From the NCBI GenBank assembly GCA_945957385.1, contig CAMFKP010000002.1, forward strand, positions 50,458 through 114,457: 64,000 nt of DNA, written 5' to 3'. The translations under genes and the position numbers were made by a program. The DNA is from an uncultured Aeromonadaceae bacterium. GTDB lineage: Bacteria > Pseudomonadota > Gammaproteobacteria > Enterobacterales > Aeromonadaceae. The notes under the pieces were generated by a model. The model saw only the letters and a list, made by a program, of their open reading frames with translations, was not told the DNA's origin and did not search any database. Below, one piece after another: positions 2,987 to 7,730 of this stretch (position 1 is its first letter; each line of letters opens with the position of its first letter).

Positions 2987-4123
2987 ATGGCTGAAGTAGT
3001 TCTGAACAATGTGCGCAAAAATTATGATCCTTCTAATCTGAAAGACACCCTGCGCAGCGTTAACCTTAATATCAAAGAGGGCGAGTTTGTCGTCTTCGTC
3101 GGTCCATCTGGCTGCGGTAAATCAACGCTGCTGCGTATGATCGCTGGTCTGGAAGATATCACCTCTGGTGAATTGACCATCGGTGGAAAATACATGAACG
3201 ATGTTCCGCCAGTTGAGCGTAATGTCGGCATGGTCTTCCAGTCTTATGCCTTGTATCCGCACATGAATGTGTATGAGAACATGGCGTTTGGTCTTAAATT
3301 GAAGAAGATGGACAAAGACACTATCCATAAGCGTGTATCTCGTGCTGCGGATATTCTTGGTTTGGTGCCTTTGCTGGAACGCAAGCCGAAAGCCCTGTCT
3401 GGTGGTCAACGTCAGCGTGTAGCTATCGGCCGTTCAATCGTCCAGCAACCGTCGGTTTTCCTGTTTGATGAGCCGTTGTCAAACCTGGATGCAGCTTTGC
3501 GCGTCAAGATGCGTATCGAGATTGCCAAGCTGCACAAAGAGCTGAACTCAACCATCATCTATGTTACCCATGACCAAGTGGAAGCTATGACGCTGGCTGA
3601 CAAGATTGTTGTTCTCAGCCCTCTGAAAGAAACGGCTGAAACTAACCTTGAGCAATACGGTACTCCGCTAGAGCTATATCACAATCCTGCCAACAAATTT
3701 GTTGCCGGCTTTATCGGCTCACCCAAGATGAATTTCTTGGGCGGTGAGTTGATTGAGATCGGTGAAGACAAGTGTAAGGTTAAATTGAGTACAGGCGATA
3801 TCATCACCGCTTGTGTTGATGCTCGTCGTGGCAGCGTTGGTGACAAGGTCGAGCTGGGTATCCGTCCTGAACACTTGGTTCCAGTGGATCATCCAGATGC
3901 CGCTGGTCGTTTGTCAGGTTTGGTACAGGTGGCTGAACACTTGGGTGCAGAATCTTTCGTGTATATGGAAGTGGATGGCAAGGACTTCACGGTCAAAGCA
4001 GCGAGCGAGATCCCGGTGGATACAGGTGATACTCTGGAAGTTGGTGTTCCAGCTCAAGCTTGCTATCTGTTTGACGCTAAAGAGCAAGCTTTTCCTCGTA
4101 CAACCAAATACAACCGTACCTAA
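2987..4123 (+). CDS. malK: Maltose/maltodextrin ABC transporter ATP-binding subunit (MalK/MsmX family)
   Basis: Walker A GPSGCGKST, signature LSGGQRQRVAIGR, Walker B FLFDEPLSNLD, H-loop YVTHDQ, C-terminal TOBE region. Confidence 0.9.
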   Translation: MAEVVLNNVRKNYDPSNLKDTLRSVNLNIKEGEFVVFVGPSGCGKSTLLRMIAGLEDITSGELTIGGKYMNDVPPVERNVGMVFQSYALYPHMNVYENMAFGLKLKKMDKDTIHKRVSRAADILGLVPLLERKPKALSGGQRQRVAIGRSIVQQPSVFLFDEPLSNLDAALRVKMRIEIAKLHKELNSTIIYVTHDQVEAMTLADKIVVLSPLKETAETNLEQYGTPLELYHNPANKFVAGFIGSPKMNFLGGELIEIGEDKCKVKLSTGDIITACVDARRGSVGDKVELGIRPEHLVPVDHPDAAGRLSGLVQVAEHLGAESFVYMEVDGKDFTVKAASEIPVDTGDTLEVGVPAQACYLFDAKEQAFPRTTKYNRT

Positions 4124-4140
4124 GCGCGTTGTAATGCATA

Positions 4141-4169
4141 AAGAGGCGCTGCAGTTGCAGCGCTTTTTT
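4141..4169 (+). terminator. Rho-independent terminator of the mal operon
   Basis: GCGCTGC-agtt-GCAGCGC followed by TTTTTT, just after the malK stop. Confidence 0.8.
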
Positions 4170-4257
4170 ATTCTGTCTGATCTCTCTGCTCATAAGCTGT
4201 CGGTGGTTGCGGTGTGGTAAATTGTTGCAACACACAGTAATGATGGAGCATTGAGGA

Positions 4258-5172
4258 ATGAGTAGATGGCCAAGCCTTAAACAGCTTCACTATCTCGTTG
4301 CGCTAGCGGAATACCAAAACTTCAATCGCGCTGCACGGGCGTGTTTTGTCAGTCAATCAACCTTGAGTACAGGTATTCAGACCCTGGAGGAGTTGCTTGG
4401 TATTCAATTGATAGAGCGTGACCATAAGTCTTTCATCATGACAACAGCCGGTCGCGATATTGTAATCCGCGCGCGTAAGATGCTGGCGGAAGCCCGTGAT
4501 ATGATGGAATTAGCCGCGGCACAAGGCGGCCTCATGTCGGGCGGTTTAAGACTGGGTTGTATACCCACGATAGCCCCGTTTTTGTTGACCGATCTGGTTA
4601 ATCGCTGTGCGCAGCAAGCCCCTCAATTAGAGCTGTTATTACGTGAAGACACGTCCGCTAATTTATTGAATCAGCTTGAAGAAGGCGAACTTGACCTTCT
4701 TGTTCTTGCACTGCCTTACGAGTTGAGAGGTTTTCACAGCCGCATAGTTGGCACGGATCCTTTTCGATTAGTGGTGCATCAGCATTTAATAGAAAAACTA
4801 CCAGCACCGGTCAGCGTCGATACGTTACCTACACATTCAGTCTTTTTGCTTGAGCAGGAGCACTGTCTAACAGGACATGCTTTGGCTGCATGCCAAATGA
4901 CGGCTCGAGATAAGATTAATCCCTTTGCTGCCTCCAGCCTTTATACCTTGGTCCAAATGGTTGCCGCGCAAGAAGGGGCAACATTCTTGCCTCAGATGGC
5001 GATTTGCGGGGGGATATTGTCTCAAACCGGGTTGCAGGCTTTGCCTTTGGCGCAAGAGGGCGCAGCTCGTGAAATTGGATTGGTATGGCGACCAAGTACG
5101 ACACGCGTAGCAACTTTTTATGCGTTTGGAGAGTTGGTTGCAGAGAGTTTAAAACAGATCTGTCAGGCGTAA
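4258..5172 (+). CDS. oxyR: LysR-family regulator, OxyR-like (probably the OxyR2-type paralogue)
   Basis: LysR HTH (LKQLHYLVALAEYQNFNRAARACFVSQSTLS), GCIPTIAPFLL motif, and the redox pair LLEQEHCLTGHALAAC (C-x8-C as in OxyR C199/C208). Confidence 0.85.
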   Translation: MSRWPSLKQLHYLVALAEYQNFNRAARACFVSQSTLSTGIQTLEELLGIQLIERDHKSFIMTTAGRDIVIRARKMLAEARDMMELAAAQGGLMSGGLRLGCIPTIAPFLLTDLVNRCAQQAPQLELLLREDTSANLLNQLEEGELDLLVLALPYELRGFHSRIVGTDPFRLVVHQHLIEKLPAPVSVDTLPTHSVFLLEQEHCLTGHALAACQMTARDKINPFAASSLYTLVQMVAAQEGATFLPQMAICGGILSQTGLQALPLAQEGAAREIGLVWRPSTTRVATFYAFGELVAESLKQICQA

Positions 5173-5284
5173 AAAAAGAAACCCGACATAAGCCGGGCGC
5201 TATAGCAAGCTATGGATATAACAGCAAGACTAACTAAGGGGTGTTGCAAACTCTTGGCATCCAGACGTCAGGATGCGTTGAAGT
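5171..5284 (-). ncRNA. Candidate trans-acting small RNA (about 114 nt), convergent with oxyR2
   Basis: The terminator CCCGGC-ttat-GTCGGG-TTTCTTTTTTT pairs fully only on the minus strand (G-U there, A-C on plus). There is a 5' hairpin GCATCC...GGATGC, an upstream TTGAAA-16-TATCAT promoter, and no minus-strand CDS to account for the terminator. Confidence 0.6.
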
Positions 5285-5290
5285 GATTAC

Positions 5291-5318
5291 ATGATAGTCC
5301 ATTGTAGTTTTTTTTCAA
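5291..5318 (-). promoter_or_regulatory. Putative sigma70 promoter of the candidate sRNA
   Basis: Minus strand: -35 TTGAAA (5318-5313), 16-nt spacer, -10 TATCAT (5296-5291); predicted +1 A near 5284. Confidence 0.55.
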
Positions 5319-5510
5319 CATTGCTTGTTGTGTGTTACGCAAAAAAGTCGCTAATGAAACCTTTTTCATTGCTGTTTGATCTAATTAATTCATCTTATGC
5401 GTCATATATTGTGGCGAGACATAGACCAAAGCGCTCGGCACTGCGTGCCTTTTCTTGATCCCTCGGAAAGCACTGAATAGACTGTGCCGTCTTTTTTGCT
5501 TGAGGTTCCC

Positions 5511-6563
5511 ATGCAGGTTTCCGATTTTCATTTTTCACTACCCGAAGAACTGATTGCTCGGTATCCAATGCCGGAGCGTTCTGCAAGCCGGTTATTACAG
5601 CTGGACGGTGTGTCCGGTGCTATCCATCACGGGCAGTTTCGTGATGTCATCGACTTGCTGAATCCAGGGGATTTATTGGTATTTAATAACACTCGAGTTA
5701 TTCCTGCGCGCCTATTCGGCCAAAAAGCGAGTGGTGGCAAAATCGAAGTGCTCGTCGAACGGCTTTTGGATGAGCACCGAATTCTGGCCCATATAAGATC
5801 ATCAAAGTCTCCGAAAGAGGGGGCTAGCCTGCTCTTTGACCATGGATATTCGGCGACAATGCTGGCGCGTCACGGTGCCTTGTTTGAGCTTGAGTTTGAC
5901 GGCGATAGTCGGGTGCTCGAAATACTTGAACATATCGGTCACATGCCTTTACCGCCGTACATTGACCGTCCTGATGAACAGGCGGACAAGGAACGCTACC
6001 AGACTGTCTACAATGCTAAACCGGGTGCCGTTGCCGCGCCAACAGCCGGTTTGCACTTCGACCAGCCGCTGTTGCAGTTGCTGCAAGCTAAAGGGGTTGA
6101 GCTGGCGTTCGTTACGTTGCATGTCGGTGCAGGTACGTTTCAGCCGGTGCGGGTTGAACGCATTGAAGACCATCATATGCATCAGGAGTACGTCGAAGTG
6201 CCCCCTGAGGTGGTAGAGCAAATTGCCGCAACCCGGCGACGCGGAGGGCGCGTAGTTGCGGTAGGCACCACATCGGTACGTTCATTAGAAAGTGCTGCAT
6301 GTGCATCTGGTGTGGCAGAGGGCCAACCACTACAGCCGTTCTATGGCGACACCGATATCTTTATCTATCCTGGCTACCGCTTTGCTGTCGTCGATGCATT
6401 GATCACTAATTTTCACTTACCCGAATCAACACTGATTATGTTGGTCTCGGCCTTTGCCGGGTATCGGCATGTCATGGATGCCTATGCTGCTGCGGTAGCG
6501 CAACGCTATCGATTTTTCAGTTATGGTGATGCCATGTTTGTAACACGTCAGTCCATGGCGTGA
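5511..6563 (+). CDS. queA: S-adenosylmethionine:tRNA ribosyltransferase-isomerase
   Basis: [50 protein letters not shown]; ATG 5511 follows GAGG. Confidence 0.97.

Positions 6564-7730
<1,167 letters not shown>

Follow-up and report, generated by a model that had tools for sequence, protein, structure and literature searches.

What is the transcription unit that appears to run on the minus strand between an OxyR-like LysR regulator gene and queA, both of them on the plus strand, in the 64,000-nt stretch of Aeromonadaceae DNA analyzed here (the window)? The sequence-only reading had taken it for an unannotated, independently transcribed, Hfq-type sRNA. This interpretation is supported in that it fits all of the comparative sequence evidence, while the Hfq dependence of the RNA, the position of its +1 and its expression we infer. 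The features of the locus are collected in Table 1, where all coordinates are positions within the window.

Table 1. Features of the minus-strand sRNA gene and its surroundings.
Feature	Position	Strand	Remarks
sRNA gene including promoter	5171-5318	minus	from sigma-70-type promoter to U tail
Predicted sRNA transcript, ~114 nt	5171..5284	minus	+1 near 5284, placed from the -10 element
Sigma-70-type promoter	5291..5318	minus	TTGAAA-16-TATCAT, 10/12 matches
-35 element TTGAAA	5318-5313	minus	followed by a 16-bp spacer, then the -10 element
-10 element TATCAT	5296-5291	minus	
5' hairpin GCAUCC-UGACGUCU-GGAUGC	5257..5276	minus	in MFE and centroid folds
Conserved unpaired core AGUUUGCAACACCCCUUAGUUAGUCUU, presumed seed	5226..5252	minus	from cross-genus alignments
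Anti-Shine-Dalgarno-like box CACCCCUUAG	inside core 5226..5252	minus	
Second U/C-rich module GCUGUUAUAUCCAUAGCUUGCUAU	5201..5225	minus	directly 5' of the terminator
Intrinsic terminator GCCCGGC-UUAU-GUCGGGU, then UUCUUUUUUU	5171..5198	minus	
Palindrome TGAAA-N4-TTTCA, candidate operator	5355..5368		AATGAAAAAGGTTTCATT on the minus strand
OxyR-like LysR regulator gene ('oxyR2')	4258..5172	plus	convergent with the sRNA gene
queA	5511..6563	plus	divergent from the sRNA gene

Most parts of the unit were found as they had been described. The promoter is present where it had been claimed, and is conserved among Pseudaeromonas relatives as the motif TTGAAA(T)AAAAyTACA-N-TAnnnT (seven genomes). The proposed 5' hairpin GCAUCC/GGAUGC was recovered by both folding approaches, and the middle of the RNA, said to be C/U-rich and weakly structured, is unpaired in the centroid fold. 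Less remains of a short AUAGC/GCUAU stem: its loop would be 2 nt, so that at most four pairs are possible, and its sequence occurs in the window and in Pseudaeromonas sharmana only. The terminator was located together with its long U tail, the DNA after the stem GCCCGGC-TTAT-GTCGGGT being TTCTTTTTTT (5198..5171), and it is indeed complete only on the minus strand; in the plus-strand version the stem is broken, A.C replacing G.U, and no U tract follows. The overlap noted between the tail and the stop codon of the oxyR-like gene amounts to the last two U, which are complementary to the AA of TAA (5170-5172). For this gene the best model was OxyR, with 211 bits, which is below the 329-bit equivalog cut-off.

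The unit had furthermore been called an orphan, a description that has to be given up, as the sRNA belongs to a family found in three of the six Aeromonadaceae genera sampled. Scanning 185,579 species genomes for the core pattern gave 26 records, all of which were Aeromonas, P. sharmana or Aeromonadaceae MAGs. A covariance model (R1) had exactly one match per genome in 55 out of 103 family genomes, distributed over Pseudaeromonas (11 of 12), which is the genus of the window, Aeromonas (43 of 46) and a third genus (1 of 1), and no match in the three other Aeromonadaceae genera of the same scan. Throughout, the copy keeps its synteny with queA-tgt and peroxide-defense genes, and queA is the constant neighbor of the locus in all genera. 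The Pseudaeromonas congeners also have a peroxiredoxin gene divergent from the oxyR-like gene.

The promoter, the core and the terminator are all kept in these relatives. Aligned by BLAST against P. sharmana, the locus matched only from the -35 element to the terminator (84% identity), and the seven Pseudaeromonas homologs are 101-119 nt long; for Aeromonas, an RNA of about 150-170 nt would be expected. The segment most conserved between genera is the core, AGUUUGCA(A)CACCCCNUAG, which is conserved together with the terminator, while the 5' hairpins vary in sequence with their pairing kept; every one of the seven Pseudaeromonas homologs has a 5' hairpin at the same place with an unrelated sequence. 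The mean unpaired probability of the core is 0.74, and in the seven homologs it is similarly accessible (P(unpaired) 0.54-0.80). Of the seed proposed earlier, CCCCUUAG, the CCCC is invariant, but the base that follows is U, G or A depending on lineage. The second U/C-rich module, which may serve in Hfq binding or as another site of pairing, corresponds to GCCAUUCCUUG of Aeromonas, invariant in 23 out of 23 sequences. The spacing of the conserved blocks differs by lineage, as would not usually be expected of one rigid seed.

Compensatory changes were found in several helices. The stem closing the core, GCAA/UUGC, becomes GUAA/UUAC in P. sharmana, and six of the eight pairs of the long Aeromonas hairpin carry such changes. 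Covariation is also seen in the terminator helix, where 99.1% of cells are paired and three of six pairs have compensatory changes, values that neither count reached in any of 500 shuffles. This covariation of hairpins and terminator points to selection at the RNA level. Judged from such comparisons, the locus is not a chance pattern, and the RNA of about 114 nt is probably a new, conventionally built regulatory sRNA.

It had been stated that the RNA matched no known enteric or Vibrio sRNA, and a search with Rfam 15 agrees with this, giving no match in the window even at E<=10. Nothing was found in Rfam at the gathering threshold for six homologous loci, nor was there an above-threshold match for the Aeromonas locus and the distant G059 locus. 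The sub-threshold matches are driven by the terminator, the top one being JA04 (23.6 bits, cut-off 81). In the literature, no account was found of an Aeromonas sRNA near queA, ahpC or oxyR2.

We consider it rather likely that the locus is the ncRNA gene of an uncatalogued Aeromonadaceae sRNA family, covering Pseudaeromonas, Aeromonas and one further genus, with the mechanism and the carbon-tied input proposed in the following. The gene is built from a promoter, a 5' hairpin, the core AGUUUGCA(A)CACCCCNUAG...GUCUU, a U/C-rich block and a terminator. Features expected of Hfq-dependent sRNAs in general are found here, i.e. an own promoter that is independent of the flanking genes, a terminator with a tail of at least 6-7 U after a U/A-rich stretch, and a conserved accessible seed region, the latter across three genera. 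The genome itself encodes Hfq (96% identical to that of E. coli), CRP (89%) and ProQ. Hfq would bind the sRNA through the U tail of the terminator and the U/A-rich stretch before it, and the sRNA would act in trans. With a C-rich box similar to the 16S rRNA 3' end (CACCUCCUUA), it may pair with G-rich Shine-Dalgarno regions, which would block the initiation of translation and usually destabilize the mRNA.

The regulatory input seems to differ between the two main genera. Among about 30 Aeromonas sequences, a perfect CRP box, TGTGA-N6-TCACA, with invariant half-sites and a variable N6, fills the spacer between the -35 and -10 elements; the window has no such box, nor does its genus. From this position, repression by cAMP-CRP is the most likely input in Aeromonas. 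Class II activation by CRP from a downstream -10 element (AATAGT) is less likely, because the distance between the box and AATAGT varies by 1 nt and because a conserved TTG-N17-TAnnAT frames the box.

In Pseudaeromonas, the input would instead be received through the TGAAA-N4-TTTCA palindrome, centered some 77 bp before the putative +1. It is found at the same position in six out of seven Pseudaeromonas genomes with this promoter type, and its half-sites are conserved while the 4-nt spacer is variable. The 12 copies in the genome of the window, 8-10 of which are intergenic, adjoin e.g. the genes for pullulanase, alpha-amylase, glucan phosphorylase and LamB, placing the palindrome beside genes for alpha-glucan and glycogen. 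The corresponding counts were 14 in P. sharmana and 18 in one Aeromonas genome, compared to 0-1 for a reversed control pattern. A first candidate for a protein acting at the palindrome is the product of a LacI-family gene at contig C56:8728-9720 of the genome. The copy upstream of the sRNA stands between two divergent genes and might be a site of queA instead. Taken from these sites, transcription of the sRNA appears to be tied to carbon status; since the two genera differ in promoter, a shared 'carbon status' input is something we only infer.

Targets were searched for in the genome of the window. Contiguous seed matches at translation-initiation regions were no more common than those of shuffled seeds, and plain duplex energies were too noisy for a ranking. 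By a rough accessibility-corrected score plsC ranked first, in a list whose ranks are only indicative, as the script artificially penalizes long duplexes; the z-score of the plsC duplex was low in only some lineages. Neither accC nor katG keeps, in other lineages, the complementary G-run at its Shine-Dalgarno sequence, and genera that lack the sRNA look the same. A RafY-type porin has no clear ortholog, only patchy relatives with 46-49% identity. None of these four is supported across genera. The pairing with ahpC in Aeromonas is weak, with mixed scores; ahpC (in Aeromonas) and plsC are still the foremost candidates, and members of the palindrome regulon were not among the top-ranked targets.

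Turning to other explanations, the sRNA could be a strongly diverged ortholog of the enterobacterial CyaR, controlled by CRP and with its box placed in a loop, which we regard as unlikely. The box CACCCCUUAG does match the CACCUCCUUAG of CyaR in 10 of 11 positions, with one base missing, the -10 element TATCAT is identical to that of E. coli cyaR, the Aeromonas homologs have their CRP box, and the niche is open, no CyaR being detected by its covariance model (RF00112, gathering score 47 bits) in any of the 25 family genomes scanned. With respect to the loop box CCACCUCCUUAGCC of CyaR, it also speaks for this reading that in most lineages a short helix, though a weak one, may form around CACCCCUUAG. 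The CyaR model, however, gives no match at the window or the Aeromonas locus even at E<=10, and the two genes lie in unrelated genomic surroundings. The CRP site, moreover, is found at -41.5 in E. coli cyaR (class II) but at about -22 in the Aeromonas homologs, i.e. some 20 bp closer and inside the promoter spacer, and the similarity as a whole is limited to about 11 nt, which anti-Shine-Dalgarno mimicry could have produced by convergence.

It is quite unlikely that the sRNA has its main role in cis in Pseudaeromonas, where convergent transcription or antisense pairing would tune the oxyR-like gene and the core would be secondary. Such a role would agree with the location of the sRNA 3' end: in all Pseudaeromonas genomes, as in the third genus, it either directly adjoins the oxyR-like stop codon or extends into it. 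Furthermore, the oxyR-like gene has no usable plus-strand terminator before the next candidate site at 5437-5449, and read-through RNA would therefore be fully complementary to the sRNA. In Aeromonas, on the other hand, the sRNA is not adjacent to any oxyR gene, being co-directional with ahpCF or other genes, and the best-conserved part of the RNA is an internal unpaired core, for which a purely antisense function would have no need.

Two further explanations have very little in their favor. That there is no gene, with a hairpin that simply terminates the oxyR-like gene and promoter hexamers that arose by chance, is highly improbable: the single sigma-70-like match in 4000-6700, TTGAAA-16-TATCAT, is not above the expectation from shuffles (3.0 +/- 1.6) and the folding z-scores are modest and near-equal on both strands (-1.83 and -1.81), but conservation covers promoter, core and terminator as one unit, in one copy per genome in three genera including genomes without an adjacent oxyR, and the U tract is found on the minus strand only. 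A small protein or dual-function RNA is equally hard to credit, as the 8-codon frame ending at the core UAG (AUG CCA ... CCU UAG in the window, AUG UCU ... CCG UAG in most Aeromonas) lacks a start codon in P. sharmana, G006, G028 and others, has no preceding Shine-Dalgarno sequence and is shifted between genera by a 1-nt indel, while a 33-aa ORF (5268-5369) is not conserved in P. sharmana and no conserved ORF was seen in the locus on reading the homologous sequences.

As a single-copy sRNA in nearly all Aeromonas and Pseudaeromonas, the uncatalogued family would count among the core post-transcriptional regulators of the Aeromonadaceae. Aeromonas includes fish pathogens as well as opportunistic human pathogens, and to our knowledge almost nothing is known about its sRNAs. 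The family would also show clearly how a promoter can be rewired while the RNA behind it is conserved, and the covariance model from this analysis could serve as the seed of an Rfam family and help in annotating genomes. More speculatively, and with a rather small chance of being correct, the family might correspond, in the Aeromonadaceae, to CyaR and Spot 42, i.e. be a carbon-status sRNA with an anti-Shine-Dalgarno-like seed, a rewired promoter and a link between carbon and peroxide. In the rewiring, the CRP box of Aeromonas, shared with a distant homolog in another family of the order, would have given way in Pseudaeromonas to a LacI-type TGAAA-N4-TTTCA operator common to alpha-glucan and glycogen genes, and a real connection between carbon supply and peroxide defense would explain why the sRNA gene is fixed next to ahpCF or prx-oxyR2, with the sRNA for example repressing ahpC or interfering with the oxyR-like transcript.

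Several known systems can be compared with the sRNA described here. AvrA and SgrS share with it the genus of its homologs and the broad class of base-pairing sRNAs. AvrA of Aeromonas veronii is 253 nt long (PMC6517841), and with up to three mismatches allowed none of its six published knock-out primers matched any of 78 loci, the A. veronii locus included. SgrS has a conserved seed, CUGAGUAUUGGUG, and its gene adjoins sgrR (PMC2760817); at the present locus this seed is absent and the neighbors are queA and the oxyR-like gene. Both identities were consequently discarded, as was that of a preQ1 riboswitch, prompted by the adjacent queA, the element being on the wrong strand and without an Rfam match.

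OxyS of E. coli is, like the sRNA, physically linked to oxyR-type and peroxide-defense genes. It is, however, divergent from oxyR and has an OxyR-bound promoter, whereas the sRNA and the oxyR-like gene are arranged tail-to-tail, and the sequence upstream of the sRNA showed no ATAG-N7-CTAT repeats of the OxyR type. Given this orientation and the lack of an Rfam match, OxyS was rejected as its identity. Spot 42, whose promoter is repressed by cAMP-CRP, tunes the use of carbon sources, a logic suggested for the sRNA as well by where the CRP box lies in its Aeromonas homologs. The two are not the same RNA, as the locus resembles Spot 42 neither in sequence nor by the model and a genuine spf is found elsewhere in the genome (contig C3:118725-118838, 93.4 bits, with 80 bits set for a match to RF00021); the model search found Spot 42 also in Aeromonas.

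Lastly, CyaR (RyeE) of the Enterobacteriaceae and the sRNA are both short RNAs with a 5' hairpin, a C-rich anti-Shine-Dalgarno-like box and an intrinsic terminator. The conserved blocks UUUGCA and GUCUU of the sRNA are not present in CyaR, and a CyaR-like link to cAMP-CRP through a CRP box is confined to the Aeromonas homologs. Their mode of action, i.e. occlusion of the ribosome-binding site, is likely to be the same.

The minus-strand element between the oxyR-like gene and queA had been taken, in a sequence-only reading, for a probable unannotated Hfq-type sRNA, and the observation is correct with a single exception. A consensus scan recovered the claimed promoter, the sole sigma-70-like match in 4000-6700, and the terminator, whose stem is indeed complete on the minus strand alone: on the plus strand an A.C pair breaks it and the U tract is absent. 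The 5' hairpin (GCAUCC/GGAUGC), the weakly structured middle and the terminator all appeared when the inferred 114-nt RNA (5284..5171) was folded, the middle being essentially unpaired. The flanking genes lie on the plus strand, as had been stated, and the overlap of the U tail with the stop codon of the oxyR-like gene amounts to two bases of its TAA. The exception is a proposed AUAGC/GCUAU stem: its loop would have to be 2 nt long, which is impossible, and the stem is lineage-specific.

Features of the sRNA locus, and palindrome sites in the source assembly (C-numbers are its contigs)
Feature	Position	Strand	Basis or remark
Sigma-70-type promoter TTGAAA-16-TATCAT	5318..5291	minus	consensus scan, 10/12 matches
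Intrinsic terminator GCCCGGC-TTAT-GTCGGGT then TTCTTTTTTT	5198..5171	minus	same scan
OxyR-like LysR gene	4258-5172	plus	scores 211 bits with the OxyR model (equivalog cut-off 329 bits)
queA	5511-6563	plus	neighbor of sRNA gene
tgt	with queA	plus	neighbor of sRNA gene
Palindrome TGAAA-N4-TTTCA	5355-5368		about 77 bp upstream of inferred +1
Palindrome sites, own genome	C5:8284, C5:102544, C14:36035, C17:28429, C25:48925		
Palindrome sites, own genome (further)	C33:20532, C44:10853, C56:8696, C61:17784		

One promoter-like match in the region is within shuffle expectation, and folding gave a z-score of just -1.8 for either strand; with the single-sequence signals not above chance, the case for an sRNA gene is a comparative one. 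A BLAST search of relatives gave an alignment limited to the -35-to-terminator stretch in P. sharmana (84% identity), and a 32-nt core, the C-rich middle with its CACCCC box, aligned at 91-94% in other genera. In a set of 185,579 species, with one genome per species, the core pattern AGTTTGY-N0-1-ACACCCCKTRGTTAGTC matched 26 records, all of them Aeromonas species, Pseudaeromonas sharmana or Aeromonadaceae MAGs, which assigns the window to a species of Pseudaeromonas. A covariance model spanning core to terminator, run on 103 Aeromonadaceae genomes, found a single copy in each of 55, i.e. in 11/12 Pseudaeromonas, 43/46 Aeromonas and the one genome of a third genus, with zero matches in three other genera. 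Just one further match, a weak one, came from 201 genomes across the order (G059, of another family). Judged by this comparative record, the element is most likely a real, conserved sRNA gene, apparently representing a new family within a familiar class of RNA.

In the terminator helix 99.1% of cells are paired and three of the six pairs carry compensatory changes, values reached by 0 of 500 shuffles. Seven Pseudaeromonas genomes keep the promoter motif TTGAAA(T)AAAAyTACA...TAnnnT and a predicted sRNA of 101-119 nt; each has a 5' hairpin, these being unrelated in sequence, and the core is still accessible. Invariant elements are UUUGCA, the CCC(C) run, GUCUU and a second, U/C-rich block just before the terminator, which reads GCCAUUCCUUG in Aeromonas. 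No conserved ORF was found in the homologues. The cores of the window and P. sharmana differ at two positions (C to U, G to A), and the two changes compensate each other in a GCAA/UUGC stem, which would put the C-rich box in a loop; comparable short helices are possible in other lineages. The predicted Aeromonas RNA is longer (about 150-170 nt) and has a long second hairpin with compensatory changes in six of its eight consensus pairs. In these homologues (e.g. L008:4850-5017) the hairpin loop UGUGCA is exactly complementary to UGCACA of the core, and this long-range pairing is the one that RNAalifold favors. Its bases are invariant and hence show no covariation; the RNA may mask itself in this way or form a pseudoknot. 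A subgroup of the window's genus (G007, G004 and G002; loci L063, L064 and L066) has a divergent sRNA, GCAAGCCCUUAGUUAGUCUUAGC, without UUUGCA, together with another promoter and ~1.1 kb of extra DNA separating it from queA.

Gene order in Pseudaeromonas and the third genus is malK-like, often peroxiredoxin, oxyR-like, sRNA, queA and tgt, with the peroxiredoxin gene divergent from the oxyR-like gene and the latter convergent with the sRNA. In Aeromonas the order, all co-directional, is tgt, queA, a CBS-pair gene, sRNA and usually ahpCF. The constant neighbors are thus queA and, across the sRNA from it, peroxide-defence genes. Comparison of window positions 4124-4257 with six related loci (L067-L070, L065 and L004; five from the window's genus, one from the third genus) revealed a 161-aa AhpC-like peroxiredoxin gene between the malK-like and oxyR-like genes, divergent from the latter. 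This gene has been lost from the site in the window, in P. sharmana and in some other genomes; the ahpC of the own genome is on contig C104. No plus-strand terminator follows the oxyR-like stop codon, the next terminator-like hairpin being GGCACTGCGTGCC with a T tract at 5437-5449, so that read-through RNA would be antisense to the whole sRNA gene. An additional cis-antisense effect of this tail-to-tail overlap is possible in the window's genus.

The Aeromonas promoter, TTGCnT-[TGTGA-N6-TCACA-C]-TAnnAT, holds a perfect CRP box filling the 17-bp spacer, with invariant half-sites and a variable N6 (about 30 distinct sequences); the box is absent from the sRNA promoter in the window's genus. The G059 locus (L128:2895-3085), adjoining gmk-spoT, has a promoter, TGCGATCTGCTTCACACTATTTG, nearly matching that of Aeromonas, as well as the second block, CAUUCC(C)UU, and a terminator, while the CACCCC core is missing. 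It is a probable distant homologue, and the family may be older and wider than Aeromonadaceae; the near-identity of the promoters makes the CRP-box type look ancestral. With the box at about -22, repression by cAMP-CRP, in a Spot 42-like logic, would be the simplest reading for Aeromonas. A class II mode of activation, using a downstream -10, is the less likely option, since the distance to this hexamer varies.

Upstream of the sRNA in the window's genus, the palindrome TGAAA-N4-TTTCA is kept in six of the seven Pseudaeromonas genomes with the TTGAAA-type promoter, its spacer being variable; the Aeromonas counterpart, TGAAA-N3-TTTCA, is found 27 bp before the -35 of that genus. Of 12 N4 sites in the own genome, 8-10 are intergenic; the sites neighbor genes for a pullulanase, an alpha-amylase, a GH5/CBM35 enzyme, a chemoreceptor, a glucan phosphorylase, LamB, a sugar-binding protein and an esterase. 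The search gave 14 sites in P. sharmana and 18 in an Aeromonas genome, and 0-1 with a reversed control pattern. P. sharmana keeps orthologous sites at pulA and at its amylase gene, and in Aeromonas sites adjoin the phosphorylase gene and two glgC-like genes. The palindrome is a genuine genomic motif, strongly over-represented and mostly intergenic by alpha-glucan/glycogen genes in both genera. A LacI-family protein is a lead as its regulator, by analogy with PtxS, a LacI-family repressor of Pseudomonas reported to bind TGAAAN4TTTCA (PMC3402500); a LacI-family gene adjoins one own-genome site. At the sRNA locus the palindrome may act on the sRNA or on queA, and the Aeromonas layout, where the corresponding site is flanked by a co-directional gene and the sRNA gene, favors the sRNA.

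The anatomy is that of an Hfq-type, presumably trans-acting sRNA, and the own genome has genes for Hfq, for a second Hfq-like protein, for ProQ and for CRP. The second Hfq-like coding region (C54:6298-6489) shares about 50% identity with E. coli Hfq across 64 aa; canonical hfq is on C77. The C-rich box would pair with G-rich Shine-Dalgarno regions and thereby block translation initiation. Seed matches showed no enrichment over shuffled seeds. The best single-genome target candidate, plsC, is supported in some lineages only; accC and katG found no support across genera, their complementary G-runs not being conserved, and neither did a RafY-type porin without clear orthologues. A duplex of the second block with the ahpC ribosome binding site is predicted for most Aeromonas (-13.7 kcal/mol, z about -2.5); it shows no covariation and is gone in a divergent clade.

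The claimed lack of resemblance to known sRNAs holds for Rfam 15, which gave no match to the window at E<=10 and none to six homologous loci at the gathering threshold; the Aeromonas and G059 loci gave only sub-threshold matches, driven by the terminator. We found no description of this sRNA in the literature searched. OxyS, SgrS and AvrA of A. veronii were excluded as its identity by orientation, seed, context or primer matching. Spot 42 has a separate copy elsewhere in the own genome (93 bits), and CyaR was undetectable in 25/25 Aeromonadaceae genomes examined. The CyaR box, CACCUCCUUAG, resembles the core box of the new sRNA, CACCCCUUAG, which also resembles the 16S rRNA 3' end; the CRP site of E. 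coli cyaR lies at -41.5, so the two architectures differ.
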